32,000 nucleotides of DNA from a bacterium (GCA_037444445.1 JBBIMK010000009.1:30001-62000), one strand, 5' to 3'. Counted from the first letter of the stretch, positions 2,463 to 24,042 are shown. Notes: a model not told the origin generated them from the letters alone. A program made the numbers and translations.

Positions 2463-2471
2463 TTCTTTGCC

Positions 2472-3674: not shown

Positions 3675-4711
3675 CTTTTCATCCCTCCTTTCCACTCGGC
3701 GATGGTCACATCTCGCTCAAGGATGCGGCCATCCCGCCAGATTTTCACTGAAAAAGTATCCCCGATATTCAACTGATTCACAGGAATCCAGAAGTCCTGA
3801 GGCAGGGTAAGAGATTTCCCCCCCAGTTCCAGCAGGAAATCGTTGGCACGAATCCCCGCTTTATCGGCTGGACTCCCCTCATCTACGAAAGTAACAAATA
3901 GTCCATAATCATACGGGTATCCGTAGCGGGTTCGCTGGGTGTCATCCACCACCAGCAAAGATACCCCGGTCCAGGGGCGGGCGAATCGCCCCTTCTCCAC
4001 TATCTCCTTCACCACTCTCCGCACCGTATTCACCGGAATGGCAAAGTGCAAGTATAATTCCTTATATTGCTGACGCAGGAAAGTAAGAACCCCCACCACT
4101 TCTCCTCGGAAATTCAAAAGAGGTCCCCCCTGCATTCCGTAGGAAATAGGGGCATCCGTTTGAATAAAGGTAGTCACTCCACCTTCCGCCCAGGGTCCCG
4201 CGGTGGGCAGTGCAGAAAGTATCCCGAAAGAAGGTGTGAACAGCCCATTTGAACTCACACCGACGGCAATCAGAGGCTCACCCACTCTCGGTGATTCGTT
4301 CTCGGGCAGGAAAGGAACCGCGGTCAGTTTCTCCGCCCGGATGCGAACCACTGCCACATCCGTCGGCTCATCCATTCCCAACAGCACCCCCTCATAACTT
4401 TTCCCATCTGAAAGAATCACCTGGATATAACGGGCATACTTCAAGGTTTGAGCCGTCGTGAGTATATATCCCTTTTTGTCATCAAAAATGAATCCAGAGC
4501 CTACTTCCGTAAGGGTTGCGTCACCCAGAATCCCTCGCTTACGCTCTAAAAAACGAACCTTCACCTGCACCAGAGCCGGTAACACTCCGTTGGAAATATC
4601 ATTCATCCGCTGGGCATAAGGATGTATTTCCCGGGGCACGGTGGTGCCGAAAAGGAACACCATACAGACCCCCCCCACCAGTCCAGCCATTTTCAGCCTG
4701 AGTCCTTTCAC
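3671..4711 (-). CDS. HtrA/DegP-family homologue with PDZ domain; catalytic His and Ser both replaced by Gln, so a predicted pseudoprotease
   Basis: 346-aa ORF. GTG start at 4711 lies 6 nt after AGGAGG (4718..4723). TM anchor: MAGLVGGVCMVFLF. GSGFIFDDKKGYILTTAQTL shows Q at the His position. PTDVAVVRI keeps the Asp. ISYGMQGGPL shows Q at the Ser position. PDZ: FVDEGSPADKAGIRANDFLLELGG. Confidence 0.85.
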   Translation of the reverse strand: MKGLRLKMAGLVGGVCMVFLFGTTVPREIHPYAQRMNDISNGVLPALVQVKVRFLERKRGILGDATLTEVGSGFIFDDKKGYILTTAQTLKYARYIQVILSDGKSYEGVLLGMDEPTDVAVVRIRAEKLTAVPFLPENESPRVGEPLIAVGVSSNGLFTPSFGILSALPTAGPWAEGGVTTFIQTDAPISYGMQGGPLLNFRGEVVGVLTFLRQQYKELYLHFAIPVNTVRRVVKEIVEKGRFARPWTGVSLLVVDDTQRTRYGYPYDYGLFVTFVDEGSPADKAGIRANDFLLELGGKSLTLPQDFWIPVNQLNIGDTFSVKIWRDGRILERDVTIAEWKGGMKR

Positions 4712-4724
4712 CGCATTCCTCCTC

Positions 4725-5096
4725 TCATTCCAGTAATCCTGTAACTTCCTGTTTTCCGGAGACCTTCAAATTATTGATCACATCCCTCACCTTCTCCACA
4801 CCTCGGGCAAGGGCCTCTGCTTTTTTCTTCTGCTCCTCCGTTTCCAGCTCCCCATCCAGGATGACCACCCGATTCTTCACCGTAATTTTCACATTTTTCA
4901 ACTGAAGGGCAATATAGGGGTCAGAAGCGAGGCTCTCCAGCACAGTGGTCTGGATGGCCATATCAATGCTTTCCACCGCCATATGCTGGGGCGCCAGAGA
5001 AGTTCTCTCCCGCATCGTCCTCCCCTTCCCCTCACACGCCACTCCCATTCCTATCGCCAGCACCAGCGCCACAAGTACACTCCCTCTCATCGCCAT
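4725..5096 (-). CDS. BON-domain (OsmY-like) lipoprotein
   Basis: 123 aa. Lipobox-like signal VLAIGMGVAC. A single BON pattern is present: DMAIQTTVLESLASDPYIALQLKNVKITVKNRVVILDGELETEEQKKKAEALARGVEKVRDVINNLKV. This matches the D..I...V...L......I.V.V.nG.V.L.G.v.....k..A......V.GV..V.N.L.V consensus. The stop codon lies just beside (1 nt from) the SD of the next gene. Confidence 0.75.
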   Translation of the reverse strand: MAMRGSVLVALVLAIGMGVACEGKGRTMRERTSLAPQHMAVESIDMAIQTTVLESLASDPYIALQLKNVKITVKNRVVILDGELETEEQKKKAEALARGVEKVRDVINNLKVSGKQEVTGLLE

Positions 5097-8700: not shown

Positions 8701-8730
8701 ATTATAGAAGATTCAAAAACCCTGTGTCAA
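8701..8730 (-). promoter_or_regulatory. Sigma70-type promoter of groES-groEL (TTGACA-N18-TATAAT)
   Basis: The minus strand reads TTGACA (8730..8725), an 18-nt spacer, then TATAAT (8706..8701). Both hexamers are perfect. The stop codon of the upstream ORF (8713..8715) lies inside the spacer. Confidence 0.7.
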
Positions 8731-9366
8731 GTCCTTCCAGTTACCTCTGGTTTCCCACTCATATTCCAGAATTTGAATGGTTGCTCCTTCCTTCTGAAAG
8801 GTTTTCAGCAGGCGGAAGTTCCACTCGGCCGCCGCCAGCACCGGATTCCCCTGCCAGGGCTCCTGATAGGAAAATCCATAATGGGGATGATAGGTGAGCA
8901 TCATCAACCGATACCCGGGGTATCGGATGGGACGAGGAACCACCAGCCCCAGCAAATCCACCACTTCGCAGTCGCAGTAATACCCTAAATACCCGATGTC
9001 TGTGGAAGAAACGGAAATGGGGGGCTGACCATTCTCCTTCAGCCACTCCGCCGCTTCCTTCTTCAATTCACTCTTCGTTTTGTGTTCCTGAAGTTCATCC
9101 CACAGCCCGGCGGAATGCTCCAGAAAAGACGGAAGCAAGGCAATGCCAGCCAAAACAAGCCCGAATCCAGCCGCTGGCTTCCATTTCCCCAGCCATTGCC
9201 ATACTTTCCCTGTTCCGATACTCACCAGCAAAAGATAAATCGGATAGATGGACATAAAGTACCACGGCGCTATGAGAGCGTGGGTGATGGAGAAAAACAC
9301 TAAAAAAGTCCAGTGCCACACCATCAGCAACAGCCCTTCATTTCTTCTCGCCACGATAGAATACAT
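8713..9366 (-). CDS. C-terminal fragment of a GT-C-like membrane glycosyltransferase (same gene as 9455..10306, displaced by one frame)
   Basis: 217-aa ORF from its first ATG. The same frame is open upstream to 9504 (..GGYDVFGYFFFYNPFIHTLAPLKIFLFPFYLFGMYSIVARR..). It therefore runs across the G8 tract where the upstream ORF terminates. TM helices are followed by a soluble tail. Confidence 0.7.
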   Translation of the reverse strand: MYSIVARRNEGLLLMVWHWTFLVFFSITHALIAPWYFMSIYPIYLLLVSIGTGKVWQWLGKWKPAAGFGLVLAGIALLPSFLEHSAGLWDELQEHKTKSELKKEAAEWLKENGQPPISVSSTDIGYLGYYCDCEVVDLLGLVVPRPIRYPGYRLMMLTYHPHYGFSYQEPWQGNPVLAAAEWNFRLLKTFQKEGATIQILEYEWETRGNWKDLTQGF

Positions 9367-9454
9367 CCCGAACAGGTAAAAGGGGAAGAGAAAAATTTTC
9401 AGTGGAGCCAGCGTGTGAATAAAGGGGTTATAAAAGAAAAAATAACCGAAAACA

Positions 9455-10306
9455 TCATACCCCCCCCTGTGGGTGAATGAAATACTGGGACAGAAGCGAG
9501 GTATCTAAAGACCCCATCGCCCCCATCTTCAATCTCCAGATAACATCCGATAAGTCCTTTTTCGCAAGGAGAGGCTCCGGCAGGAGAACTCCATAATATC
9601 CATAAATCAAAAGGGCAGTCAGAAATGAAAAAAGCCCCAAAAATAGCAGGGTTTTCATTCCCCTTTTCCAGTTTTGATAAAAAAGAAACAGGATTGCCGA
9701 GGCATCGTAAAATATGGCTTCCGGTCGTGTGAGAACCATTGTCAGCATCACTAAAGACAGGTTGAAAGGCTCTGCCTTCTTCCTCATAAGAACGAGAAGC
9801 AGGAAAAACAAAAAGTGAAAAAGTGGCGTTTCCATCCCCGAGGCTTCAAAAATATGAAAGAAGGGATTCCAGGTGAAAAAAAGGAGGGCAATGGTGGCTG
9901 TGCCTCTTCCCCATTCTTCTTTCACAAAAAAATAGAGGAGGATACAGGTGAATAGAAAAAAAAGCCAGTTCAGGAGGTAAGCCGAAAGAATTCCTTCTAC
10001 CCCGATAGAAATCAGTCCAGCGTTCAACAGCATAAAAAGGGGTGCAGAGGTTCCGAAAATCCGCATCCCCGGATTGAACACCGCCCCCAGCCCATCCGCC
10101 AGGTTCCGGGCATATCGCAGGGTGATCAGAGCATCGTCCGTGGGATATTGAACCAGAACATACGCCAGCAAACGAAGAACCGCACCCGTAAGAATCAGCA
10201 GGATTGCCGTCTTCTCTGTTTTCCAGTATTTCTTTACCTGACGAGTGATTATTTTTCTGCCTGTGCAAATATAAGAAAAACCTGCTATGTGGAAGAGCAC
10301 ACCCAT
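9455..10306 (-). CDS. N-terminal fragment of a GT-C-like (PMT/ArnT-type) polytopic membrane glycosyltransferase
   Basis: 283 aa with multiple TM helices. An acidic first-loop motif, YPTDDALITLRYARNLADGLGAVFNPG, resembles the DD/DxD loop-1 motif of GT-C enzymes. The ORF ends ..IHPQGGV-TGA immediately after a G8 run. The family call is by motif memory only. No SD precedes ATG 10306. Confidence 0.6.
   Translation of the reverse strand: MGVLFHIAGFSYICTGRKIITRQVKKYWKTEKTAILLILTGAVLRLLAYVLVQYPTDDALITLRYARNLADGLGAVFNPGMRIFGTSAPLFMLLNAGLISIGVEGILSAYLLNWLFFLFTCILLYFFVKEEWGRGTATIALLFFTWNPFFHIFEASGMETPLFHFLFFLLLVLMRKKAEPFNLSLVMLTMVLTRPEAIFYDASAILFLFYQNWKRGMKTLLFLGLFSFLTALLIYGYYGVLLPEPLLAKKDLSDVIWRLKMGAMGSLDTSLLSQYFIHPQGGV
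9460..9467 (-). repeat. Homopolymeric G8 (C8 on the plus strand) at the frameshift point of the split glycosyltransferase gene
   Basis: Read directly: atac-cccccccc-tgt on the plus strand. Removing one G joins ..FIHPQGG to YDVFGYFFF.. and yields one ORF of about 530 aa (10306..8713). Confidence 0.9.
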
Positions 10307-10343: not shown

Positions 10344-11465
10344 TTATTCTTCTAAACCGGCGATCCCGCCTTTGAACTCGGTTCGTGCTTTCCTCAACGA
10401 GCGCTGGCGGACGAAAAGTTTGAAATCGTGTGGGCTGGAAGCCGCATTTAATGCGGTCTCATAGGTGATTTTCCCCTCCGTATATAACTGATACAGGTGC
10501 TGGTCAAAAGTCTGCATCCCCTCAAACTCATCCTCTTCCATAGCCTGGCGGATGAGGGAAAGGTCTTCCCCTTCCTGAATCAATTCTCGGATTCTTGCCG
10601 TGGCGACCATAATTTCCATAGCGGGGATGCGTCCCCCTCCCACCATAGGCAGTAGTCGCTGGCAGAGAATGCTCTCCAGGGTAGTGGCAAGCATTATCCG
10701 AATCTGGTTCTGAAACTCTGGTGGGAAGTATTCCACAATCCGGTTCAAAGTTTGAACCACATCCATCGTGTGGAGTGTGGTCATCACCAATCTCCCGGTG
10801 ATGGCCGCCGTGATAGCCGCCATAATGCTTTCCCGGTCCCGCATCTCTCCAATCATAATGGCATCCGGGTCCTCCCGCAGAATGGTGCGGAGAGCGGAAG
10901 CAAAGTCCGAGGTGTCCAGCCCCACTTCCCGCTGGTTGATGATAGCCTTTTTATCGTAGAACACATACTCAATGGGGTCTTCCACACAGATGATGTGATA
11001 CGGCTTGTGAAGATTGATGTGCTCAATCATAGTGGCGAGAGTGGTGGACTTCCCGCTTCCCGTGGTTCCAGTAACAATAATCAGCCCCCGGGGTCGCAGA
11101 GAGAGCTGCGCCAGCAGGGGGGGAAGGTTGATCTCTTCAAAGGTGGGGATGCGAGTTTTCACATGGCGAATAGCAAAGGCGAGGGTTCCTCTCTGGCGGA
11201 AGAAGTTCACTCGGAAGCGCCCCTCAATATCCGGCGCCCGATAGGAGAAGTCCAGTTCATCCCGCTCTTCCAGGAGATGTTCCCGCTTGGCAGTCAGGAG
11301 GGTTCGCCCCGCCGCTTCCAGGTCCTCTTCCGTCAGGATAGGCAGGTCCGTAGGTTCCAGAATCCCATCAATCCGAAGATAGGGAGGGCGTTCAAACCCC
11401 AGATGAAGGTCTGATGCCCCCCGCTCCACCATCATTCGGAGCAAATCTCTGATGTCTATCGGCAT
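10344..11465 (-). CDS. PilT/PilU-family hexameric ATPase, divergent second copy
   Basis: 373 aa: GASDLHL, Walker A GTTGSGKSTTLA, Asp box CVEDPIEY, Walker B AIMIGEMRD, His box TTLHT. The PilT AIRNLIRE helix is degenerate (ARIRELIQE). There is a C-terminal extension of about 30 aa. Confidence 0.88.
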   Translation of the reverse strand: MPIDIRDLLRMMVERGASDLHLGFERPPYLRIDGILEPTDLPILTEEDLEAAGRTLLTAKREHLLEERDELDFSYRAPDIEGRFRVNFFRQRGTLAFAIRHVKTRIPTFEEINLPPLLAQLSLRPRGLIIVTGTTGSGKSTTLATMIEHINLHKPYHIICVEDPIEYVFYDKKAIINQREVGLDTSDFASALRTILREDPDAIMIGEMRDRESIMAAITAAITGRLVMTTLHTMDVVQTLNRIVEYFPPEFQNQIRIMLATTLESILCQRLLPMVGGGRIPAMEIMVATARIRELIQEGEDLSLIRQAMEEDEFEGMQTFDQHLYQLYTEGKITYETALNAASSPHDFKLFVRQRSLRKARTEFKGGIAGLEE

Positions 11466-11511: not shown

Positions 11512-11555
11512 ATTTATAAAAATCAGGGGGGTCTCCTTCAGGAGGAGACCCCCCC
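11512..11555 (-). terminator. Rho-independent terminator after the last pilin gene
   Basis: The minus strand reads GGGGGGTCTCCT-cctga-AGGAGACCCCCC (12-bp perfect stem, 5-nt loop) followed by TGATTTTTATAAATA. It lies 40 nt downstream of the stop at 11595. Confidence 0.8.
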
Positions 11556-11594
11556 ATTATACGGGCGCCCCACAGAATTGGAAATGAACTTTCT

Positions 11595-12689
11595 TTACTG
11601 TTCTACGGTGCCGCCGGTGGCTTGCTCGGTTCCAGCGGAGTAGTAAACCACGACGCCGTCATAACGACCATCCTGGTTGGGTGTGCTCACATCCGTGGCT
11701 CGGGCAACCCCTGGTGCAGGAACAAAGGCCACATTGGGTATCTCCGCCACGCCCAGGAGTGTGCCCTGAGAGCTCACTCCACCATAGCCCGGCTCATTTA
11801 ACCAAATCGAGCCCGGGATAAAAGCGTTAGGATTCTGACGGCATCCGAACCTGTCTACCACCGTGCCTGACAGGGTGCCAAACTCTGTGGGCAGACCGTT
11901 TAGTCCACCGTTTGGATTTCGTGTCCCCCAGCAGTGCAGGACATCCTTCCCCACAGTGCGGACCGAGCCATACCCAGCCAGCAGGAAGTGGTCAATAGAG
12001 AATGGCCTCATAATGCCTCCGGTGGTGCCTAACTGGCGGATAATCCCCGGCGTTACCCCGTAAGCCCGATAGGCGAACTCACCCGGAATCCAGTCCACCG
12101 TCTGGGTGTTATCATCCCCCATGAAGTAGTAAATTACCTGCTGTTGACCAGTGGCTAAAGGGTTATCACTGGGTAACGGACTCAGGGTGCCGCACTGGGA
12201 AGTCTGGGTATTGCAGTTGTTGGTGTCTCGTCCGGGGTAATTCGGGTCCGATAGAATGTTACCCAGAAGATCGCCGCCTTGTGGCCGCGGGGGTAAGCCC
12301 GCTCTCCACCAGCAGCCGAAGCGCGGGTCCAGGTTGGTCCGAATGCAGAGAGAGCTTCCGTCCTTCATAAATGGATTCCGATGGTAAGAAGTTTGATACC
12401 CGTAGAAAATTAAGGGGTCCATGGGCTGTGCAGTAGCGAGAGCAGCCCACCCTTGCCCATTGGTCCAGGAAGCCACATCCCCACCGTAAATATAGTTCGG
12501 ATATAGGCCATCCTGATCCGTGGCGTATCGCTCCAGGGATATCTGGATGGCGTGGACGGAGGACTTGGTTTGCACCTCCAGCGCCTTGTCCTTCGCCTTG
12601 ATGAAGTTGGGAAGGGCAAGGGAAACCAGTATCCCGATGATGGTGATGACCACCAATAACTCAATGAGGGTAAACCCTCTACGAATCAT
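11595..12689 (-). CDS. Large type IV pilin / GspG-like prepilin (364 aa, 6 Cys)
   Basis: Class III signal peptide MIRRG|FTLIELLVV with Glu at +5. A GspG-like helix follows: LPNFIKAKDKALEVQTKSSVHAIQISLERYATDQDGLYP. The globular part is about 300 aa. SD GGAGGTG lies 5 nt upstream. Confidence 0.85.
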   Translation of the reverse strand: MIRRGFTLIELLVVITIIGILVSLALPNFIKAKDKALEVQTKSSVHAIQISLERYATDQDGLYPNYIYGGDVASWTNGQGWAALATAQPMDPLIFYGYQTSYHRNPFMKDGSSLCIRTNLDPRFGCWWRAGLPPRPQGGDLLGNILSDPNYPGRDTNNCNTQTSQCGTLSPLPSDNPLATGQQQVIYYFMGDDNTQTVDWIPGEFAYRAYGVTPGIIRQLGTTGGIMRPFSIDHFLLAGYGSVRTVGKDVLHCWGTRNPNGGLNGLPTEFGTLSGTVVDRFGCRQNPNAFIPGSIWLNEPGYGGVSSQGTLLGVAEIPNVAFVPAPGVARATDVSTPNQDGRYDGVVVYYSAGTEQATGGTVEQ

Positions 12690-12822
12690 AAAAACACCTC
12701 CTTTTTTCCGTCAGGGAGAAAAGGAAGCCCGCTTTTTCAGGGAGAACCCTGTGGGGCGCCCTTTCTTTTTTATCTCTCTTCAATGCAGGCTTCCCTTCCT
12801 CTCTGCACGGAATTTTTATTCC

Positions 12823-13992
12823 TTACTTCAGTTCCCGTTTGGGCTCCTTATCCAATCCACCGTAAACCAGGGTGATAATTTGGTCAGGCGTGCCATCAGG
12901 GCCACTTCCACTGGGTCCCACCTCATCTCCAGGCTTCAGGGGCGTAATGGTATAGGTGCACTGCCAGGTACTTGGCGGGACTTTGTAGAAGGGGACATTC
13001 ATCGGGTCTGGCTCAAAGGAGAAATATCCCGTGAGAAACCCGTGAGCACCGCCGAAGGAGGTCCAACACCAACCCCCCGCACCCGGTGGTTCACAGCAGG
13101 AGCGGTGCATATAATCGTAGCCCAGGGTTTTGATAGAGCCGAAGCCCACGAGAACATATCCGCAGACGGCGTGGGAAAGGATTCGGGCCGCCGGTAGGCT
13201 ACCCGTGTTGTTCAAGGCTTCCAGATGGGCATCCACGGTCTCACCGTCGCAGAAAACCGGGTGATAAAAGAACTGACCCGGCACATCCATGCTCGGAGGA
13301 CCATACTGCTGACGATAGCCGGACATGTCATTTGCCCACAAATCCGTCCACACCGATTCGCCTTTCCCCCAGCCGAGGTCGAACATAAGGTTGCCATATC
13401 TGCCTCCCACGGCGTAACCAGGGCTGTAGAGTTGAACATAAGGGGACCCCGCAGCCCAGACGCTGTTGATGTTTGGCGGTATGAACGGATTCTTCGGATA
13501 CTCGCTCAGATAGCCGAACATCAACAGCATGTCCATGCAGACTTCCTTGCTCGGGGAGTTGGGACCCCGATACTCCGGAACTCTCTGCTTCAGGGTTCCC
13601 AGTTCAGGCAGACAGTAAGGCCGGTTGGTGTTGCAATCCACAAAGTCCGGCGGGTTTAGCCAACTGCCATCGTAATCCAGGAAGGCAGATTCACCGGCGT
13701 TCGTTCCCGGATTGCATCCGGAGGAACTAGCGTATGGTCCTCCGTCTGCACTGGCGATATTGAACTCCTGGTCACCTCCCGTGACTACCTGTGGATAGAG
13801 CCCCGCATTTTCCACAGCGTAGCGCTCCAGTGCCATCTGAATGATGTGGATGTTGGCTTTGATCTGCGTTTCCTTCGCCTTATCCCGCGCCCGTATATAG
13901 TTGGGTAAGGCGATAGAAACCAGAATTCCCAGAATCACCATAACCACCAGTAACTCAATAAGCGTGAAACCTCGAATCATTCGGGATTTCAC
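12823..13992 (-). CDS. Large type IV pilin / GspG-like prepilin (389 aa, 10 Cys)
   Basis: MKSRMIRG|FTLIELLVVMVILGILVSIALPNYIRARDKAKETQIKANIHIIQMALERYAVENAGLYP. GTG start at 13992 lies 7 nt after GGAGGTG (14006..14000). Confidence 0.85.
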   Translation of the reverse strand: MKSRMIRGFTLIELLVVMVILGILVSIALPNYIRARDKAKETQIKANIHIIQMALERYAVENAGLYPQVVTGGDQEFNIASADGGPYASSSGCNPGTNAGESAFLDYDGSWLNPPDFVDCNTNRPYCLPELGTLKQRVPEYRGPNSPSKEVCMDMLLMFGYLSEYPKNPFIPPNINSVWAAGSPYVQLYSPGYAVGGRYGNLMFDLGWGKGESVWTDLWANDMSGYRQQYGPPSMDVPGQFFYHPVFCDGETVDAHLEALNNTGSLPAARILSHAVCGYVLVGFGSIKTLGYDYMHRSCCEPPGAGGWCWTSFGGAHGFLTGYFSFEPDPMNVPFYKVPPSTWQCTYTITPLKPGDEVGPSGSGPDGTPDQIITLVYGGLDKEPKRELK

Positions 13993-14086
13993 CGCGTATC
14001 ACCTCCTTTCAGATTCTTGTTGTTCTCTTTCATTTTTTGGGTTCCTTCGTTTTACCGCCTTTCATCCTCGGATAACGAAGTAGCCT

Positions 14087-15226
14087 TTACGGCGGTGGCC
14101 CCTGACCTGAGGCTTCGCATCCGGGCTTCCGGGTGTCCATGAGCACCTTCACATCCACGCCGGAGGAGAGAACGGTGATGACACCGTCTGGCAACCCGTC
14201 AGGACCGTTATACACGCAGTAAGCATCGCGTGCGGAGGCATAGTTCAAGTCCCCCGGTTCCAGTTTGCAATCCCCCTCCGCATCATCACAGGCGAGAGTG
14301 CTCTCTGCGTAATCGCCCAGGACATCATAGACATCGTGCCCGCGATTCCAGCTAGCACCATAGCCTGCCAGATGATAGCCCACCACCTTTGCCTGCATAA
14401 AGAACCCTGTCCAGACATAATTCGAGTCTGGCTGTATGGGGTAGTAGTAGAAGTTGCCCGGTAGGTAATTGTGGAGGATTTTGTTGGAGGTTTGAGCCTG
14501 GGCGGGGTCGCAGCCGGGGCTCCCTAACTTGCATCGGATGGAATAGGGTGGGTGCCCTGCCCAGCCTCGGGCGGTAACGGTAAGCCCTGATACAGTATTA
14601 TTCAATTGCCCCCCGCGCTGGCAAGCGCCTTTGCCTAACCCATAAGCCCCGGAAGGACCGCAGATGGCTCCGTAAACCCCCTCGCTGACATCCCACATAA
14701 AGGAGTTGGTAGGTCCGCCCACATGTCGACAAGAGGCGTCGTCGGCTGATTGACACCGATTGTTGGGGAAAACCGTGCTGTAGTTGCAGAACACATCGGC
14801 GTTGCCCCCCATGTTATTTGGCCAGCGCGGGTGTGGACACTCCCGCACCTGAAACTGGATTCCGGTGCCCGCCGCTGACATAAAGGGATTGTTAGGGTAC
14901 CGATTGAGGTAGCCGTATTCCATGAGTGGGTCCCCATCCCCGCAGGGCTGGCTGATCCTCGGGCAGTATATCGGGGCAAAGGGGGAAGCATTCCAGTCGT
15001 CGTAATTCCCCCCCAACAGCCACTTGGGAAAGGCCCCGTCATTATCCGAAGCATACCGTTCCAGCGCAGTGCGGATAATGTGCAGGTTCGCCTCCACCTG
15101 CTTCTCTCGCGCTTTGTCCCGCACCCTCGTGTAGTTGGGCAACGCAATGGCCACCAGTATCCCGATGATGACCATGACCACCAGTAACTCAATCAGTGTG
15201 AATCCACGAATCATTCGGGATTTCAC
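14087..15226 (-). CDS. Large type IV pilin / GspG-like prepilin (379 aa, 14 Cys)
   Basis: MKSRMIRG|FTLIELLVVMVIIGILVAIALPNYTRVRDKAREKQVEANLHIIRTALERYASDNDGAFP. GTG start at 15226 lies 7 nt after GGAGGTG (15240..15234). The leader is identical to that of the 12823..13992 paralogue. Confidence 0.85.
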   Translation of the reverse strand: MKSRMIRGFTLIELLVVMVIIGILVAIALPNYTRVRDKAREKQVEANLHIIRTALERYASDNDGAFPKWLLGGNYDDWNASPFAPIYCPRISQPCGDGDPLMEYGYLNRYPNNPFMSAAGTGIQFQVRECPHPRWPNNMGGNADVFCNYSTVFPNNRCQSADDASCRHVGGPTNSFMWDVSEGVYGAICGPSGAYGLGKGACQRGGQLNNTVSGLTVTARGWAGHPPYSIRCKLGSPGCDPAQAQTSNKILHNYLPGNFYYYPIQPDSNYVWTGFFMQAKVVGYHLAGYGASWNRGHDVYDVLGDYAESTLACDDAEGDCKLEPGDLNYASARDAYCVYNGPDGLPDGVITVLSSGVDVKVLMDTRKPGCEASGQGPPP

Positions 15227-15290
15227 CTGATATCACCTCCTTTGAATTGGATTTGAAAGTGTTTCCGGTTCTTTTTCATTTTTTCATCCC

Positions 15291-16514
15291 TTATTTGAAC
15301 AGGTCAATGATGTGGAAAATGGGGAGGTACAGGGCGATGACAATCGTTCCCACCACGGCGCCAATGACAAGAATCATCACGGGCTCAATCAGGCTGGCAA
15401 GCCCTTTGATGGTGGCATCAATCTCCACATCGTAGAAATCGGACAGTTTATACAGCATATCCTCCAGGTTTCCCGCCTCTTCGCCTACGGCCACCATGTG
15501 GTAGACCATAGGGGGGAAAATCCCGGTTCGCTTCATCGCAGGTGCAATCCCTTCCCCTTCTCGCACCCGGTCCCGAATGTAGTGCACACTCTGAGTGACC
15601 ACATAGTTATCGGCGGTATCCGAAACCACTTCCAGTGCCTCCAGGATTGGTACCCCACTCTGGGTGAGTGTGCCTAAGGTTCTGGAAAAACGAGTGATAG
15701 CCACTTTCTTGGACAGAGGACCCAGAATCGGAAGACGGATGAAAAGAGGGTCCAGCAAGCGATGCCCCCACCGACTCTTCCGAAACCGCCAGAAAATCAT
15801 CACTCCCACAAAAGGAGATGGAAGCACCCACCACCAGTTTAAGACGATAAAGTCGGAAATTTCTACCAGCTTCTGCGTGAGCGCTGGAAGAGGCACATTC
15901 CCGGAAGAAAGGCTCTCATACAGGCTGGCAAACTGTGGCACGATGTAAATTAAAATCCCCATCGTAATCAGGAATGCAATCACGGTAACGAAGGAAGGGT
16001 AAGCCATGGCGGAGCGAATCTTATGCCGCAAATCCAGTTCCTTCTCAAAGAACATGGCCATACGCTCCAGAATGGCTTCCAGAACGCCACCGATTTCCCC
16101 CGCATGCACCATACTTACGAAGAAGTTAGAGAACGAACGGGGGTGCTTCTTCATGGCTCTCGCCAGGGTTTCTCCGCTCTCCACATCCAGCCGCAACTGA
16201 TGCACAATCCGCTTCAGGTTGGTGTCCTGGGTCTGCTCCTCTATCACATCCAGGGCGTTGGCAAGGGTAAGACCCGCCGAAATCAAAAGGGAGAACTGAC
16301 GGGAAAAAACGGTGAGGGACTTTAATCCGACACCACGGAAGCGACCCATGAAAGCCCCCGCACTCCTTCCCCCTTTCTTTTCCCGAATGCGAACCACCCA
16401 GTATCCCTGGCGGCGCAGTGCATCCACCACCGTCTGGGGATTATCCGCCTCCATTACCCGCGAGAAGGTCTTCCCCCCCGCTCCCCTCGCAGTAAATACA
16501 AATGTCTTCGCCAT
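15291..16514 (-). CDS. pilC: Type IV pilus platform protein PilC (GspF family)
   Basis: 407 aa with two GspF-type repeats (FSRQFSLLISAGLTLANAL.. and FSRTLGTLTQSGVPILEAL..), three TM segments, and the typical N-terminus F.F.ARG..GK...G...A......V...LR..G. SD GAGGG lies 7 nt upstream. Confidence 0.93.
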   Translation of the reverse strand: MAKTFVFTARGAGGKTFSRVMEADNPQTVVDALRRQGYWVVRIREKKGGRSAGAFMGRFRGVGLKSLTVFSRQFSLLISAGLTLANALDVIEEQTQDTNLKRIVHQLRLDVESGETLARAMKKHPRSFSNFFVSMVHAGEIGGVLEAILERMAMFFEKELDLRHKIRSAMAYPSFVTVIAFLITMGILIYIVPQFASLYESLSSGNVPLPALTQKLVEISDFIVLNWWWVLPSPFVGVMIFWRFRKSRWGHRLLDPLFIRLPILGPLSKKVAITRFSRTLGTLTQSGVPILEALEVVSDTADNYVVTQSVHYIRDRVREGEGIAPAMKRTGIFPPMVYHMVAVGEEAGNLEDMLYKLSDFYDVEIDATIKGLASLIEPVMILVIGAVVGTIVIALYLPIFHIIDLFK

Positions 16515-16609: not shown

Positions 16610-17752
16610 TCATGGGCTTTCCATTGCCTCCCGGGATGCCATCTCCAGTGCCTCTTCCACACCGCCGGCAGGACCTGCCGCGATGAGACGCTGGAGTTCC
16701 TTCGGATTATGGGCGGCAGCCATGGCAGTCTCCAGGGTTATCCTCCCGGAGAAATAATAATCTCGCAGACACTGGTCCATCGTCTGCATTCCTAATTTGG
16801 TGTGGGTCATCATGGTGGAGTGAATCTGATAGATTTTTTGCTCCCGAATCAGGTTCCGGACCGCCGGGATGTTGAGCATCACTTCAAAGGCAGCCAGGCG
16901 CCCCTTCCCATCCGCTGTGGGCAGAAGTTGCTGGGATAAAACGACCTCCAGGGCATTGGCTAACTGCGCCCGAACCTGGGATTGCTGATGTGCAGGAAAA
17001 ACATCAATGATGCGGTCAATGGATAACGGAGCATTGATGGTGTGGAGGGTGGAAAAAACCAGGTGTCCCGTCTCTGCAGCGGTAATGGCGGTAGAAATAG
17101 TTTCCAGATCCCGCATCTCCCCCACCAGAATCACATCCGGGTCCTGACGGAGCACCCTTCGCATGGCTTCCGCGAAGGAGAAAGTATGGTCGCCCACCTC
17201 CCGCTGATTCACATTGGCTTTTCCATGCGGAATCACATATTCAATCGGGTCTTCCATTGTGACCATGTGAAGAGGCTTGGTCTGGGAAATGACATTGAGC
17301 ATGGCAGCCAGGGATGTGGTTTTCCCGCTCCCCGTGGGACCGGTGACCAGAATCAGCCCCCGAGGAAGCATAATTTTCTCCTTCATAATCGGAGGAAGCA
17401 GGAGTTCATCCATGGTGGGAATGCGGCTGGGCAGCGCCCGAATAGCGAGGGTCACTCCCGTGCGGGTCAGGGATAGATTGCACCGAAACCGACCCAATCC
17501 CTCCTGCTCGTAGGAAAAGTCCAATTCCCTCTCGTTCTCAAACCGCTTCCTCCTCTCCTCCCGAATCATACTGTAAGCCAGTGCACGGGTATCCTCCGCG
17601 TCCAGCACCTCGTATTCTGTCAGGCGGACCAGGTTCCCCAGCACCCGAATCGTGGGAGGAAGGCCCGGCGTCAGATGCAAATCCGTGCCGTTGACTTCAT
17701 GAACCTTTACCAGCAGGTCCAGAACAGTATATTCGCCCACTCCCTTCGGCAT
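16610..17752 (-). CDS. pilT: Twitching-motility retraction ATPase PilT
   Basis: 380 aa: GTDLHL, Walker A GPTGSGKTTSLA, MEDPIEY, ILVGEMRD, STLHT, and a near-canonical PilT helix AVRNLIREQK. SD GGAGGTG lies 8 nt upstream. Confidence 0.93.
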   Translation of the reverse strand: MPKGVGEYTVLDLLVKVHEVNGTDLHLTPGLPPTIRVLGNLVRLTEYEVLDAEDTRALAYSMIREERRKRFENERELDFSYEQEGLGRFRCNLSLTRTGVTLAIRALPSRIPTMDELLLPPIMKEKIMLPRGLILVTGPTGSGKTTSLAAMLNVISQTKPLHMVTMEDPIEYVIPHGKANVNQREVGDHTFSFAEAMRRVLRQDPDVILVGEMRDLETISTAITAAETGHLVFSTLHTINAPLSIDRIIDVFPAHQQSQVRAQLANALEVVLSQQLLPTADGKGRLAAFEVMLNIPAVRNLIREQKIYQIHSTMMTHTKLGMQTMDQCLRDYYFSGRITLETAMAAAHNPKELQRLIAAGPAGGVEEALEMASREAMESP

Positions 17753-17770: not shown

Positions 17771-19573
17771 TTACGAAATCAGGGGAGCCAGTTTCCGCGG
17801 CGCCTCCGCCAGACCGGGAACCCTCCGCTCGGGAACCCGTTCAGGTATTAACTCCAGAGCCCGTTCCTCGGGTGGAACCACCCGGAGCACTTCCTCCAGC
17901 GTCGTAATTCCCTCCAGGGCTTTGCGAACACCGTTTTCGTACAGGGTCCGCATTCCCTCCCGCATCGCCTGGCTCTTGATTTCCATGTGAGAAGCGCCCG
18001 ACAGAGCCATTTCCCGGATCCGGGGGCTCATCACCATAATTTCAAACAGGGCGGTTCGGCCCTTGTAGCCAATCCCGTTGCAGAACTTGCACCCCACCTT
18101 GTTATAAAGAATCACTTCCTCCGTTTCCTTCCGCCCCAGAACCTTCATCACCCCCGCTATCTTCTCCATCTCGTACGAAGAGGGATGGTAGGATTTCTTG
18201 CAATAAGGGCAGAGGACGCGAATCAAACGCTGGGCAACCGCCGCTATCAGTGTGGCATTCACCAGGTAGGGCTCCACGCCGATGTTCACCAGACGAATGA
18301 TGGATGAAGGTGCATCATTGGTGTGAAGGGTAGAAAAAACGAGGTGACCGGTCAGGGAAGATTGAATCGCCATCTCCGCCGTTTCGTAGTCCCGAATTTC
18401 CCCGATCATCATGATGTCCGGGTCGGAGCGGAGAAAGTGCCGGAGCGCCGAGGCGAAAGTCACTCCCACCTTCGTGTTCACCTGCACCTGATTCACCCGG
18501 TCAATTTCATACTCCACCGGCTCTTCAATGGTCATCACATTCACTTCATCGGTGGCAATTTTCATCAAAGAAGCATACAGCGTCGTGGTTTTCCCGCTCC
18601 CCGTAGGACCCGTGAGAAGGATAATCCCGTGAGGGCGGGAAATCAATGAGTTCCACACCTTCATCTCGTCCTCCGAGAACCCCAGGTCCACCAGGCTCAT
18701 CAACCCCACCGCCCGGTCCAGTATTCGCATGACAATTTTCTCCCCGTACACCGTAGGAACGGAAACCACACGCATATCAATCTCCCGGTCGGGCATCTGG
18801 AAAAAAATCCTCCCATCCTGAGGCTTTCGTCGCTCCGCCGTGTCCATCCCTGCAAGAATCTTGACCCGGGCCAGCGTAGCCGCTATGGCTTGCTTCGGGA
18901 TTTCCATCTGTGGTATCAAAATGCCGTCCACCCGGTACCGAACCTTCATTTTTTCTCTCCGGGGTTCCAGGTGGATGTCCGAAGCCCGGGAATTTACCGC
19001 TCCCGTAATCAGCGTGTCCACCAGCTTGACAATCGGGGCATCTTCTACCTCAAACTCTTTGGAAATCTGCTTGAGTTCCAGAAGGTCCAGCCCCTTTTCC
19101 CGCCGCTCCGCCACAAACTCTTTGATGGCTTTCTGCGCAGCGTGCTTCACCCCGTAGTGCTGTTCAAAGGCGTGCTTTAAAGCATCCAGGGTGGTGATAG
19201 CCGGGCGAACCTCATATCCAGTCGCCAGCCGTATGTCATCAATCGCAAGAAGATTCAGAGGGTCCACCATCGCCAGCACAAGCGTATTCCCCTCCAGTCG
19301 CACCGGAAAAACCTGATGCCGAAGAATCAGGTCGGGAGTAATCACCCCTTTCGTAATCAGCGCCTGGTCCACGGGCGTCTCAAACAGGTCAATCACCTCC
19401 ACACCCAGTTGATGGGAGAGGGTCCGGGTGATATCCTCCGGGGAAGCCATCGCCAGTTCCACAATCACCTCTCCCAGGCGCTTCCCCGTTTCCTGCTGGA
19501 CTTTCAGGGCACGCTCCAGGTCCTCGGCAGTAAGTAACCCTGCCTCCACCAGCAAATCACCTAATCTCTTCAT
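17771..19573 (-). CDS. pilB: Type IV pilus assembly ATPase PilB (GspE family) with an N-terminal MshEN-type domain
   Basis: 600 aa. N-terminal T2SSE_N-type repeats are present. Walker A GPTGSGKTTTL, IEEPVEY, IMMIGEIRD, STLHTND. Tetracysteine CPYC...CKFC zinc motif. Confidence 0.93.
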   Translation of the reverse strand: MKRLGDLLVEAGLLTAEDLERALKVQQETGKRLGEVIVELAMASPEDITRTLSHQLGVEVIDLFETPVDQALITKGVITPDLILRHQVFPVRLEGNTLVLAMVDPLNLLAIDDIRLATGYEVRPAITTLDALKHAFEQHYGVKHAAQKAIKEFVAERREKGLDLLELKQISKEFEVEDAPIVKLVDTLITGAVNSRASDIHLEPRREKMKVRYRVDGILIPQMEIPKQAIAATLARVKILAGMDTAERRKPQDGRIFFQMPDREIDMRVVSVPTVYGEKIVMRILDRAVGLMSLVDLGFSEDEMKVWNSLISRPHGIILLTGPTGSGKTTTLYASLMKIATDEVNVMTIEEPVEYEIDRVNQVQVNTKVGVTFASALRHFLRSDPDIMMIGEIRDYETAEMAIQSSLTGHLVFSTLHTNDAPSSIIRLVNIGVEPYLVNATLIAAVAQRLIRVLCPYCKKSYHPSSYEMEKIAGVMKVLGRKETEEVILYNKVGCKFCNGIGYKGRTALFEIMVMSPRIREMALSGASHMEIKSQAMREGMRTLYENGVRKALEGITTLEEVLRVVPPEERALELIPERVPERRVPGLAEAPRKLAPLIS

Positions 19574-19609: not shown

Positions 19610-21814
19610 TCATCGTTTTTCCCGTCTCATTTTCATTGTAGCATCTTTTTTATTTCTGTCAACTCTTACATCCAGGTGCCTTATACCAGCCTGCAGTGCC
19701 ACCAGGGATTCGGGGGATGGAGGCTCTCCCCCATAAAAATACTTCTCCACACAGGTTAACAGCCCGTGAATTTCCCGCTCCGACGATGGTGAAACCCGGA
19801 GGACAGAAACCAGATACTCCCGATAGGTTGCCGAAGGCGAGCGCGGGAACCCGGCTTTCTTTTCCACCCTCCCCACCAGCGATAACAGCCTCTCCCGGAA
19901 AGAGGGCGAACGCGGAAAACGCCCACCCATAGATAAAATGACAGAATGGATATGGTGATAAGCATAAGGGAAAAAAAGAGGCAGCAGGAACGCAAGGATT
20001 AGAGGAACTTTTACCCGGTTGAACCAATTCCCAATAGGCCTCGCAAGCGTAGATACATAATACGACAGCGTGGCGGCGAGGAAAGCCAGACGGTCCTGAA
20101 AATAATTTCCCGGGCTGAGAGGGTTCACATCCCGGCTGAGACCCCCCACACCACCCGGGTTTGTCACGGAAACATTCTGCAAAACCTCAGGCGTGGGGTC
20201 CATCGTTATCCAGGCATAATTTGGGATATACGCTTCCACCCACGCATGGGCATCCTTATCCTTCAGCGTAAAACTCCCCTGCAAGAAATCATACTCCCCG
20301 CCCATATACCCACCCACCACTCGCGCAGGGATTCCCACCGCTCTTAACAGCACAGCCATCGCACTCGCATAAAACTCACAGTACCCACTCCGCCCCTCAA
20401 ACAAGAAATAATCCACCGCATCCCGGTCCCTCGGAATCCTCCCCAATTCCAGCTTGTACTGGTAACGCGGCGAATTCAGGAATCTCCGTATCGCCTCCAT
20501 CTTCTCATAAGCGGAAGCAAAGCCGTCCGTAATCTCGTGCGCCAGCGCATAAACCCGCTCAGGAACCTCAGGCAATTCCAGATACCGCCTCAGGACCATG
20601 GCCTCCCTGGAGGGTAGTGAATCCACCCGATAAATTTTCAGGGTCGTCTCATCCGTCTTCACCACATACGACTCTACGGAGTAAGAATACCCCGGGTTTA
20701 ACACAAAAGAGGTTCGCAACGACCCCTCCCGGTCCGACGACACGAAACTACCCTCCTGGCGGTGAAATGAAAACGGTAACCTCACCGAAACGGGCTCCCA
20801 CAGGGCAAACAGCACATTCGGGTGAGGTTTCAACACCCGAAAAGTAGTTCTCACCCTTTCATATTCGTAATCCCGCTCCTCATCAGGCTCTATCAGAGGA
20901 ATATACCCCTTTTCCGAGTCAACCGAATGAGGTGTCAGGGGCGAATGCGAGGGGATTTCCCATCCCCTGCCCGTATAAGTCGTGAACACCAGCCCGCGGA
21001 AATACCCCGCAAAAGGAGCAGAAACCTCCATCGCAGGCTCCTCCGACAGGTGGATACTTTCCCCCGATGCCAGTTGCAAGTAAGGCGAGAAGCCCGAATA
21101 CCGCACATAAGCGGGAGGCAGGTCATCCGAAAAATTTAACGGCACAAGACTTCCAATGGTTCCGCCGGCAGAGGTGGGTCCAGCCAGCAACACCAGAGAC
21201 TCACCCCGGGGAATCTTCGCTACCATCAAGAACACAATAGATGAAAGCAGAAAAGCCCATAGAAAAATGTTCAACCCCAGGCGGAAGAAGACGGGCACAG
21301 TCCATTTCTCTCGCTTCTCCAGATTTTTCTGAAAACCTCCCCGTTGGATAAACATAGTGGATTCCCCAAAGATGACCAGTAGCAGGCTTGCCAGCCCCAG
21401 AATCGCAAAAAGTATCCCCGTAAAATTATAAAGGGATAGACCCCCGGTGAACAGCGACACCGCTACAGGAAACGACAGGAAAAATAGCACATCCTGAAGG
21501 GTAAATAACCGGAGGAGAAAAACTATCAACAGCCAGGGAACCAGCCGGCCGATATAGAGATAAAAGTTACCAAAATCCTTCACCCCCTGATAAGTATAGT
21601 AAGTGAACAAAAGGAAGGAACAAATTTCTCCCAGTATCCGAACCCACTTGTGCAGTGAGCGAGGAATGAACAGGCTGAGAAAAAAACTGCCGTTCATCAG
21701 GGCATAGAGAAGGATTGCCTCATAGGGCTTGTAGGAAAGCGCCAGAAACACCAGCGCAAAACACAAAGAGGAAATCACCCATACCAGCACATACTGGAGG
21801 GTGGAAATGGGCAT
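19610..21814 (-). CDS. Membrane transglutaminase-like protein (TgpA-like: N-terminal polytopic domain, transglutaminase core, C-terminal TM tail)
   Basis: The core keeps an intact Cys/His/Asp arrangement: EGRSGYCEFYASAMAVLLRAVGIPARVVGGY, KDAHAWVEAY, ITMDPT. The start is uncertain. ATG 21814 has AAAGGG 9 nt upstream. ATG 21862 has AGGAGG directly abutting the ATG. GTG 22033 from the ORF track would overlap the upstream gene by 194 nt. Confidence 0.85.
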   Translation of the reverse strand: MPISTLQYVLVWVISSLCFALVFLALSYKPYEAILLYALMNGSFFLSLFIPRSLHKWVRILGEICSFLLFTYYTYQGVKDFGNFYLYIGRLVPWLLIVFLLRLFTLQDVLFFLSFPVAVSLFTGGLSLYNFTGILFAILGLASLLLVIFGESTMFIQRGGFQKNLEKREKWTVPVFFRLGLNIFLWAFLLSSIVFLMVAKIPRGESLVLLAGPTSAGGTIGSLVPLNFSDDLPPAYVRYSGFSPYLQLASGESIHLSEEPAMEVSAPFAGYFRGLVFTTYTGRGWEIPSHSPLTPHSVDSEKGYIPLIEPDEERDYEYERVRTTFRVLKPHPNVLFALWEPVSVRLPFSFHRQEGSFVSSDREGSLRTSFVLNPGYSYSVESYVVKTDETTLKIYRVDSLPSREAMVLRRYLELPEVPERVYALAHEITDGFASAYEKMEAIRRFLNSPRYQYKLELGRIPRDRDAVDYFLFEGRSGYCEFYASAMAVLLRAVGIPARVVGGYMGGEYDFLQGSFTLKDKDAHAWVEAYIPNYAWITMDPTPEVLQNVSVTNPGGVGGLSRDVNPLSPGNYFQDRLAFLAATLSYYVSTLARPIGNWFNRVKVPLILAFLLPLFFPYAYHHIHSVILSMGGRFPRSPSFRERLLSLVGRVEKKAGFPRSPSATYREYLVSVLRVSPSSEREIHGLLTCVEKYFYGGEPPSPESLVALQAGIRHLDVRVDRNKKDATMKMRREKR

Positions 21815-21839
21815 CTGCCACAGCCCTTTCCCCCTTTGT

Positions 21840-23108
21840 TTATCCAGAATAGAGTAAGTCATCCTCCTGTGATAAAGTATACACCCTGGCTCCCCCGGAT
21901 GCAACCTGCTGGAGAAACTTCTGCACAGGGTCCCGAGGGAGAGAGAGAGGAGAAATCTTGCCTGAATCCGCCCCCCCACCGGAACGAAAAGCCTCGGGAT
22001 TGATGTAAAAAAAGGATACAGAAGCCACAACACAACTGAGGTGATGGAGAATCGGAATCATTTCCTCCCTGATGCTGGAGGTGAATAAAAGGAGATGAAG
22101 GTTGGGAGAACGAAGATGAGACAGGAGGCGGAGAAGCACGGTAGAGAAGGGGTTAGAGCCTTTTCCCTGAATGCAGGCTAATTTTTGGAAGGCCACAAGA
22201 AGGGAGGCAGGTCCCGAAGCAAGGGTGAAATCCATTCCATCCGGCTCATCAAAATAAACACTCCCCAGTGCACCCGTAGAGAAATAGTAATGCGCCACGG
22301 AAGCGGCAGAGCGAATAGCCACCTCCAGGGTATTCCGGGGACCATCCCCCAGAATTTGATGGGGGTCCACATCCACCACGATTAAGAAATTCCCCCCCAT
22401 TTCCCTGAGGAACTGTTTCAGGACCGGGAAACCCAATCGGGCGGAGGTGAGCCAGTGAATATTCTTAAATGGGTCCCCCGGGACATACGGACGCAGTCCG
22501 ATGAATTCATCCCCCGCTCCTTCCAGGGATACGCTGGGTCGCAGAGGAAGCGGTGAGCCCCCGCCCGCTTCCAGGGGAAAAGAGGTGAGAATGAGAAACC
22601 GAGGATACACGGTGAATGCCCGTTCTATCCGGAATATCTCCTGCACCTGATATAACTTCATCGGGTCCTGCGATTCCAGAACTATAGTGGAAAACGGATA
22701 GATTCCCCGACGCACACTCCGAAGGCTGAAAGGATAACGCACCTCCTCCCCTTTCTGAATCCGGGCAAGATGAATTTCCAGCGGCGACTCTATATAGGGC
22801 GCCTGAAAACTCACTTTTAACAGAATCTTCTGAAGTGGCGTGTGATTCCGCACCACCACTTCACCCTGAAAACTATGCCCCTCTACATTCCCCTCCGGAA
22901 CCCGCAGGTCCACACTCACTCCCCGGAGACTCCGAGTCACCCAGATGAAGGCGATGATGTGTAAAGCCACGAAGAAAGATAGCACCGCATCCAGCGTTTC
23001 CACAGCAGCACTCGTAACAGACAGCACAAAGATAAAAAGGGCAATGAGCAAAAGAGAAATCCCCCGGGGTGCTATGAAATACCGGGTCCTATGCGATGGG
23101 AACTTCAT
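21840..23108 (-). CDS. DUF58-family protein (vWA-like, MoxR partner)
   Basis: 422 aa with two N-terminal TM helices. DUF58 signature: GDEFIGLRPYVPGDPFKNIHWLTSARLGFPVLKQF...FLIVVDVD. It overlaps the MoxR stop by 20 nt. Confidence 0.85.
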   Translation of the reverse strand: MKFPSHRTRYFIAPRGISLLLIALFIFVLSVTSAAVETLDAVLSFFVALHIIAFIWVTRSLRGVSVDLRVPEGNVEGHSFQGEVVVRNHTPLQKILLKVSFQAPYIESPLEIHLARIQKGEEVRYPFSLRSVRRGIYPFSTIVLESQDPMKLYQVQEIFRIERAFTVYPRFLILTSFPLEAGGGSPLPLRPSVSLEGAGDEFIGLRPYVPGDPFKNIHWLTSARLGFPVLKQFLREMGGNFLIVVDVDPHQILGDGPRNTLEVAIRSAASVAHYYFSTGALGSVYFDEPDGMDFTLASGPASLLVAFQKLACIQGKGSNPFSTVLLRLLSHLRSPNLHLLLFTSSIREEMIPILHHLSCVVASVSFFYINPEAFRSGGGADSGKISPLSLPRDPVQKFLQQVASGGARVYTLSQEDDLLYSG

Positions 23109-24027: not shown

Positions 24028-24042
24028 TCTCCTACCTCCTCA

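Follow-up and report, generated by a model that had tools for sequence, protein, structure and literature searches.

Three tandem prepilins of 364–389 amino acids in a conserved pilB–pilT–pilC–pilT cluster: candidate subunits of an unusually thick type IVa-like pilus

A 32,000-nt stretch of bacterial DNA (GCA_037444445.1, JBBIMK010000009.1:30001-62000; hereafter the window, with positions counted from its first letter) encodes three tandem, very large prepilins, p1, p2 and p3, among genes for a type IV pilus motor (Table 1). A preliminary description of this DNA reported open reading frames (ORFs) of 364, 389 and 379 amino acids (aa) with class III signals (MKSRMIRG|F or MIRRG|F, followed by Glu at +5), and both the ORFs, on the minus strand, and their signals are present as described. 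The mature proteins start with FTLIELLVV... and carry Phe+1, Glu+5, Gly14 and Pro22. Their N-termini match the Pfam N_methyl model PF07963 with 30–33 bits against a cut-off of 21.2 (E = 3e-7 to 4e-8, the value for p1 being 4e-8) and TIGR02532 with 33–35 bits against a cut-off of 16.3. The proteins are about 2.5 times the usual size of a pilin, and the heads that follow the N-terminal helix are acidic and rich in Gly and Pro.

AlphaFold2 (AF2) models of p1 and p2 contain an alpha-1 helix of about 50 residues (11–61) with a predicted local distance difference test score (pLDDT) of 94–98. GspG is the best NCBIfam match of the first ~60 residues, but the GspG model TIGR01710 scores 52.2, 53.8 and 46.2 bits for the three proteins, below its cut-off of 88.85, and only positions 1–61 of its 134 are covered. 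An hhalign comparison with a GspG alignment gave E = 5e-22 over 64 columns that comprise the helix only. Compared with PDB chains of geopilin, Myxococcus xanthus PilA, Thermus PilA5 and GspG, the family profile aligned through residues 4–72 only, with E = 1.5e-13 to alpha-1 of M. xanthus PilA (8tj2_C residues 1–46). The earlier designation of these proteins as GspG-like thus applies to the helical first ~60 residues; it does not extend to the head, which TIGR01710 does not reach and for which hhalign is not significant.

Each of the three genes has a strong Shine-Dalgarno sequence (AAAGGAGGTG) 7–9 nt before its start codon, a distance that supports GTG as the start of p1 and of p2. The p1 gene begins at 15226, after the end of pilC at 15291, and a single strong terminator downstream of p3 closes the p1-p2-p3 unit. 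A duplicated 5' leader (AAAAAATGAAARAGAAC ... AAAGGAGGTGATA) is common to p1 and p2 (13993–14066 and 15227–15290, minus strand); these two proteins have an identical leader peptide and 72% identity over their first 60 mature residues. A duplication or conversion event that included the untranslated region follows from these similarities. Rfam and tRNA scans of the window gave no matches. A six-frame scan of the 32 kb found no further class III motif on a real ORF besides p1–p3, in agreement with the earlier statement that the window holds no short conventional pilin.

The three genes occupy the position of a major pilin, after pilB-pilT-pilC and before a second pilT, and the products of pilB and pilC score highest against type IV pilus models. 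Further upstream, the window encodes a TgpA-like transglutaminase, a DUF58 protein, MoxR, a Bac_transf sugar transferase, a GT4 glycosyltransferase, AlaRS and LptF/G, the last of which indicates a diderm organism. Two membrane ORFs, GroEL and three HtrA-like proteases lie on the downstream side. The window encodes no secretin, PilD, PilMNOP, GspC/L/M or other gene specific for the type II secretion system (T2SS), and no minor-pilin operon. The order Bac_transf-MoxR-DUF58-transglutaminase-PilB-PilT-PilC-p1-p2-p3-PilT, comprising eleven genes, recurs in four metagenomic loci (L081, L086, L087 and L088; assemblies GCA_054402895.1 for L081 and GCA_900174565.1, FWPU01, for L086), so that pilB-pilT-pilC-p1-p2-p3-pilT is kept in five genomes and the proposed link between the large prepilins and a pilus is strengthened. 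The synteny is kept although AlaRS of the window is only 44% identical to that of 'bacterium JZ-2024 1', from which L081 derives.

The family genes of more distant genomes also stand in pairs. L082, L084 and L085 have a p2-like gene followed by a p1-like gene, L089 has an untyped pair, and a p2-like gene stands beside a p1-like gene in all four distant loci that were typed by subfamily. L134 and L162 encode three family members followed by two non-family prepilins of ~350 and 600–630 aa with GspJ/PilW-like N-termini, a layout that suggests major-type plus minor-type pilins. No small pilin was found within the flanks of 10 kb on either side of nine long loci examined, nor in the window.

Table 1. 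Positions of the prepilin genes, their parts and the neighbouring pilus genes (window coordinates unless a locus is named).
Feature	Position	Strand	Evidence or remark
p1 prepilin, 379 aa (mature 371 aa, 40.2 kDa, 14 Cys), p1-like subfamily	14087..15226	-	ORF/translation
p1 class III leader peptide MKSRMIRG	15203..15226	-	predicted cleavage before Phe9
p1 alpha-1 helix (mature F1, E5, G14, P22 ... ERYA)	15044..15202	-	AF2 helix residues 11-61; pilin/GspG profile matches
p1 C-terminal block GPDGLPDGVITVLSSGVD (family GPDG..DGVI..L.SG.D; last core strand)	14153..14206	-	model strand residues 349-355
p2 prepilin, 389 aa (mature 381 aa, 41.6 kDa, 10 Cys), p2-like subfamily	12823..13992	-	ORF/translation
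p2 class III leader peptide MKSRMIRG	13969..13992	-	
p2 alpha-1 helix	13810..13968	-	AF2 helix residues 11-61
p2 block D.L...GYL..YPKNPF	13483..13533	-	invariant D154; near-invariant G160, Y161, Y165, P166, N168, P169, F170
p2 block PGQFFYHP, start of first core beta-strand	13258..13281	-	invariant G239, F241; strand residues 241-247
p2 block GY.L.G.G....G.D, second core strand	13114..13161	-	invariant D293; strand residues 276-284
p2 C-terminal block GPDGTPDQIITLVYGGLD	12850..12903	-	invariant D370; near-invariant D366, G379, D381; strand residues 372-378
p3 prepilin, 364 aa (mature 359 aa, 38.7 kDa, 6 Cys), p3-like subfamily	11595..12689	-	ORF/translation
p3 class III leader peptide MIRRG	12675..12689	-	
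Intrinsic terminator hairpin, end of p1-p2-p3 unit	11524..11556	-	14-bp stem and T-run
PilB-type assembly ATPase with MshEN domain	17771..19573	-	Pfam T2SSE and MshEN; TIGR02538 585 bits, below 676-bit cut-off
PilT1 retraction ATPase	16610..17752	-	TIGR01420 438 bits, cut-off 319
PilC-type platform protein	15291..16514	-	Pfam T2SSF E = 3e-65; best NCBIfam type IV PilC 393 bits, below 700-bit cut-off
PilT2, second PilT/PilU-family ATPase	10344..11465	-	TIGR01420 431 bits, cut-off 319
Family trio and two other large prepilins	L134:4416-10835	-	N-termini of the two others weakly like GspJ and Verru_Chthon cassette protein C
Family trio and two other large prepilins	L162:354-6956	+	N-termini of the two others weakly like GspJ and Verru_Chthon cassette protein C

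The head comprises about 310 aa. Multiple alignment of 83 sequences shows the blocks D.L...GYL..YP.NPF, PGNF.Y, GY.L.GYG....G.D and GPDG..DGVI; the short islands that p1–p3 were described to have in common are therefore real and conserved throughout the family. Neither Pfam nor NCBIfam recognized a domain beyond the N-terminus of p1–p3, Pfam gave no match to 28 diverse family heads, and profile searches of PDB sequences gave none to the head, the full-length profile matching through the alpha-1 region only. Comparison of the head with the GspG head by hhalign, including a version restricted to core columns, was not significant (P = 0.05–0.08), and its best local alignment paired GYL..YPKNPF with YL..P.DPW. 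The heads do not belong to a known characterized domain family, as Pfam, NCBIfam, PDB sequence, Foldseek and DUF1559 comparisons were all negative. In short, an ordinary N-terminus and machinery go together with an undescribed head of unprecedented size.

The AF2 model of p2 (pLDDT 86, predicted template modelling score (pTM) 0.88) has, after the helix, strands at residues 241–247, 276–284 and 372–378 and a small hairpin, and these strands match the conserved blocks PGNFYYHP, GY.L.GYG and GPDG..D.VI. The p1 model (pLDDT 73, pTM 0.79) has strands at 259–264, 283–289 and 349–355, with its Cys-rich insertions at low confidence. Both models show one compact domain of 3–5 strands. The AlphaFold and Foldseek comparison proposed in the preliminary description, made on p1 and p2, returned no significant PDB fold: the p2 model had no match (best E = 1.3), and the p1 model had no more than three weak matches, each of them to CofA, a type IVb pilin (best E = 0.58). 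Since the models consist of one compact domain and the conserved blocks run through to the C-terminus, we read the head as a single expanded pilin-head domain carrying long insertions and not as a pilin with a grafted module. For the same reasons the idea that these are pilin-anchored adhesin domains fits the models poorly. The GPDG..DG block stands before the last strand, and its likeness to the GspG calcium-site loop is positional only; that it is the counterpart of this site remains a guess, because the similarity of the heads to GspG is not significant.

The 14, 10 and 6 cysteines previously counted in p1, p2 and p3 were confirmed, all being even numbers. Calling the proteins cysteine-rich is appropriate for the p1–p3 lineage and not for the family as a whole, as 6–14 Cys occur in the clade that is linked to pilBTC and many relatives hold 0–2. 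An even count was found in 35 of the 40 relatives that have at least 4 Cys, and Cys columns co-occur pairwise (p2 C248/C277 in 16/16 sequences, C300/C309 in 5/5, and C127/C152 with a Jaccard index of 0.71), which is consistent with the suggestion that the even numbers reflect disulfides. The majority of the Cys are located in variable insertions. Judging from this pattern, 3–7 disulfides probably staple the lineage-specific loops and insertions.

A sequence search with p2 gave ~90 full-length relatives of 340–460 aa, whose sole Pfam annotation is N_methyl and which are named 'type II secretion system protein' in the databases. The spread of such large pilins, for which a profile search had been suggested, was determined with a head-only profile, built from the ERYA motif onward on 28 diverse sequences, against 1.84 billion representative proteins. 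It found 315 clusters at E 1e-3, 240 at 1e-10 and 75 at 1e-30. Among 150 matches listed, the head usually begins at about residue 52–60, right after a helix of pilin length, and ~239 alignment columns are filled in at least 80% of the sequences. In addition, JGI metagenomes were scanned with a degenerate DNA pattern for D.L...GY...YP.NPF, which gave 80 more loci; the median mature length in the metagenome loci is 350 aa. Family genes per locus were counted with a hidden Markov model of the head. There was one family gene in 44 loci (mostly short contigs), two in 29, three in 12 and four to seven in 4, and the genes nearly always stand in tandem sets of 2–7. A scan of a genome collection based on N-terminal pilin motifs yielded, among the matches listed, only N-terminal similarities from unrelated phyla and no family loci. 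By these searches the family is small, sharply delimited and inherently large, and it was found only in uncultured bacteria.

Within the family, p1, p2 and p3 belong to three different, old subfamilies, and orthologues were found for each. Head identity is 41–61% for p1 orthologues, and for p3 it is 49% with the orthologue in L081 and 76% with the representative P0195. AlaRS of the window (27830–30481, minus strand) is 44–48% identical to its nearest relatives, including that of JZ-2024 1, and 40–42% identical to those of many phyla. This low identity places the host in a deep and sparsely sampled lineage.

Not all family members carry a pilin signal. The N-termini of 212 complete family representatives comprise 137 canonical class III signals, 15 variants with Glu5, and 60 without Glu5 or cleavage motif that have an ordinary hydrophobic anchor; a few of these 60 are start-truncated canonical pilins. 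In several of them the anchor is preceded by a cytoplasmic extension of 50–100 aa with a zinc-ribbon-like CxxC...CxxC. In P0153, P0193, P0205, P0231, P0223, P0230 and P0252 and at loci L210–L213, alpha-1C and the head are kept, and a transmembrane (TM) anchor that follows such an extension takes the place of the prepilin leader and Glu5. The TM-anchored versions are encoded singly and at a distance from pilus genes, in contexts that give no functional lead. A 6.8-kb contig (L100:52-6797, JGI contig Ga0180435_10016225) is filled by six family genes arranged head to tail. The signal is canonical in 27 of the 29 close orthologues of p1–p3. The loss of the pilin signal in about 28% of the members implies that the head can work without a filament.

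Around the pilus genes we observed some further features. The genes for Bac_transf, MoxR (AAA_3), DUF58 and the TgpA-like transglutaminase stand directly upstream of pilB in the five genomes (19610–25458 in the window, minus strand). As listed, the ORFs for DUF58 and the transglutaminase share 194 nt (21840–22033), so one of the two starts is probably mis-set. Just downstream of pilT2, at 8713–10306 (minus strand), are two membrane ORFs of 283 and 217 aa in different frames and 88 nt apart, the first of which has a sub-threshold match to PMT_2 (GT-C glycosyltransferase; E = 0.006). This pair, which is not conserved in the syntenic loci, may represent one GT-C gene that has been split or frameshifted; to connect it with pilin glycosylation would be purely speculative. 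At 1281–5096 (minus strand), three HtrA/DegP-like proteases (Trypsin_2 and PDZ) stand in tandem beside a BON-domain protein, and a similar triple protease array occurs on a distant family-bearing contig (L212:1-3380). Lastly, a 460-aa ORF between AlaRS and the GT4 glycosyltransferase (26451–27833, minus strand) has only a sub-threshold Glyco_hydro_42 match (E = 0.0017).

Among characterized systems, M. xanthus PilA, a type IVa pilin of 208 aa, is the largest major pilin in a solved pilus (PDB 8TJ2; PMC11046646), and a literature search found no report of larger major pilins. It resembles p1–p3 in F1, E5 and P22, in an enlarged C-terminal globular domain, which there contains disulfides, and in its pilB/pilT/pilC neighbourhood. 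In contrast, p1–p3 are ~1.8 times larger in mature form, are three paralogues instead of one, and have no sequence similarity to it past alpha-1. The likeness to GspG comprises the helix, GYL..YP.NPF against YL..P.DPW and, in our own reading of the models, three long core strands with a D/G-rich loop before the last; unlike GspG, p1–p3 are 2.7 times longer and their locus has two PilT and no T2SS genes. Modular pilins such as Streptococcus sanguinis PilB/PilC, CofB, GspK and ComZ (PMC8179133) are likewise very large, with a class III signal and a bulky mass on a pilin helix. They consist of a small complete pilin module and a separate, often recognizable module (vWA, lectin), whereas no extra domain is recognizable in p1–p3, whose genes stand at the major-pilin position and in tandem paralogous sets. 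More than one major-type pilin per machinery, as proposed here for p1–p3, is known from the PilE1/PilE2 heteropolymer of S. sanguinis (PMC10628169), and several major-type pilins share one machinery in the case of Geobacter sulfurreducens PilA-N/PilA-C and Thermus PilA4/PilA5 (PDB 6XXD, 6XXE). These precedents span heteropolymeric and alternative filaments, but their pilins are small (61–160 aa) compared with p1–p3.

Since p1–p3 have the full hallmarks of the helix, stand at the major-pilin position in a conserved synteny and have no small pilins nearby, they may well be the polymerizing subunits of a retractile type IVa-like pilus that is built by the adjacent motor, a reading to which we give an even chance. 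A PilD-type peptidase encoded outside the window would cut after the leader Gly, leaving the helix with Phe1, Glu5, Gly14 and Pro22 in the inner membrane. From there the adjacent PilB-PilC motor would polymerize the subunits and the two PilT paralogues would depolymerize them. Each subunit would have a pilin-like core of alpha-1C and three long beta-strands (PGNFYY, GY.L.GYG and GPDG..DGVI) with long coil-rich insertions in between. The adjacency of p1- and p2-like genes in every typed multi-gene locus, together with a trio order that is kept across deep divergence, indicates that the filament is probably heteropolymeric or that the machine builds more than one filament type. Type IV pili usually have a rise of ~1 nm per subunit and a fibre of ~6 nm. 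By our own scaling, subunits of 39–42 kDa at a rise of ~1 nm would give a fibre of ~9–10 nm. The fuller picture is a deep-branching, uncultured lineage with a retractile pilus whose body is made of two or three ~40-kDa subunits, the largest major pilins known, with a head fold that lacks a solved relative, in a heteropolymeric fibre of ~10 nm; the head would have been separated from the pilin signal more than once to serve again as an envelope protein anchored in the membrane. This picture is put forward tentatively, as less likely than not.

Several observations weigh against p1–p3 being the filament body. Their mature length of 359–381 aa lies outside the range surveyed for major pilins, which is 42–297 aa with a mean of 141 among 1,955 PilA-group sequences (PMC11046646), and characterized pilins of their size are modular minor pilins (PMC8179133). 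A pilin fold of the head has no statistical support from Foldseek against the PDB for either p1 or p2. The tandem pairs in the distant genomes (L082, L084, L085 and L089) do not adjoin pilB, pilT or pilC, 60 of the 212 representatives have an ordinary TM anchor in place of Glu5 and the cleavage motif, and the N-termini of the six-copy array in L100 are degenerate, some of them being lipoprotein- or lipobox-like (e.g., ...LGVASCGG). Moreover, 32 kb of the genome were seen, and the remainder may encode a small major pilin, PilD, PilMNOPQ and minor pilins. If such a small conventional pilin forms the body, p1–p3 could be low-abundance minor, tip or priming pilins with ligand-binding heads, and three related subunits could make a GspI-J-K-like tip complex. 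The size of p1–p3 would agree with this, as all characterized pilins of similar size (S. sanguinis PilB/PilC, CofB, GspK and ComZ; PMC8179133) are minor, and so would the 32-kb limit of the visible genome. However, p1–p3 keep Glu5, Gly14 and Pro22 and the classic major-pilin position beside pilBC, the head is a single domain without a grafted module, separate minor-pilin-like genes accompany the family genes in L134 and L162, and none of the nine long loci has a small pilin within 10 kb. We therefore consider a minor-pilin role unlikely.

The anchored members raise another question, namely whether there is an external fibre at all. The helix could serve as an inner-membrane anchor or form a short periplasmic pseudopilus, with the head engaged in envelope binding or catalysis. 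Besides the TM-anchored representatives, some with a zinc-ribbon extension and standing alone away from pilus genes, and the L100 array with its degenerate or lipobox-like N-termini, a site that binds a ligand or a metal could be formed by the invariant acidic and aromatic residues (D154, D293, D366 and D370 and the Y/F/N/P positions), and the best NCBIfam match of the helix is a pseudopilin, GspG. Still, the canonical signal in 27/29 close orthologues speaks for true prepilins at this locus, and the two PilT retraction ATPases that flank p1–p3 indicate a dynamic, extended filament. T2SS loci lack PilT, and the window contains no T2SS-specific gene or secretin; nor was any catalytic family or fold detected for the head. 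A fibre-free role thus seems rather improbable for p1–p3. It would also make the finding an ordinary one if they fell into a catalogued group of large prepilin-like proteins, either DUF1559/H-X9-DG of the Planctomycetota-Verrucomicrobiota or Verru_Chthon. These are uncharacterized proteins of 200–400 aa from poorly studied phyla with prepilin-type N-termini; the 300–400 aa and the class III N-terminus are alike, those matches of the p2 search that are confined to the N-terminus are DUF1559 proteins, and there are weak N-terminal matches to TIGR02596 and TIGR02599. Yet p1–p3 and the 28 heads gave no PF07596 match at E <= 1 and no other Pfam family matched the heads, hhalign of the head against a 15-sequence DUF1559 alignment aligned 22 columns at the helix end (E = 0.04), and the Verru_Chthon matches cover 23–32 N-terminal residues with 13–23 bits against cut-offs of 70–256. 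The family further differs from both groups in its 2–7 tandem genes and in having one clade inside a pilB-pilT-pilC-pilT cluster, and shows no head similarity to them. With the head searches negative, membership in DUF1559 (PF07596) or the Verru_Chthon groups (TIGR02596–TIGR02599) was rejected, and we regard it as very improbable.

If p1–p3 form the filament, they would raise the upper size of major type IV pilins almost twofold (in the survey consulted, 208 aa in a solved structure and 297 aa by sequence). Questions would then arise about the packing of such heads in a helical lattice, the stiffness of the fibre and its passage across the outer membrane. A fibre of ~10 nm may not fit a conventional secretin. 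The conserved sets of two or three subunits are a natural test case for heteropolymeric pili. The family also records a transition between true prepilins and membrane-anchored proteins with the same head, which could reveal the role of this head. It is invisible to present domain databases and merits a family model of its own.

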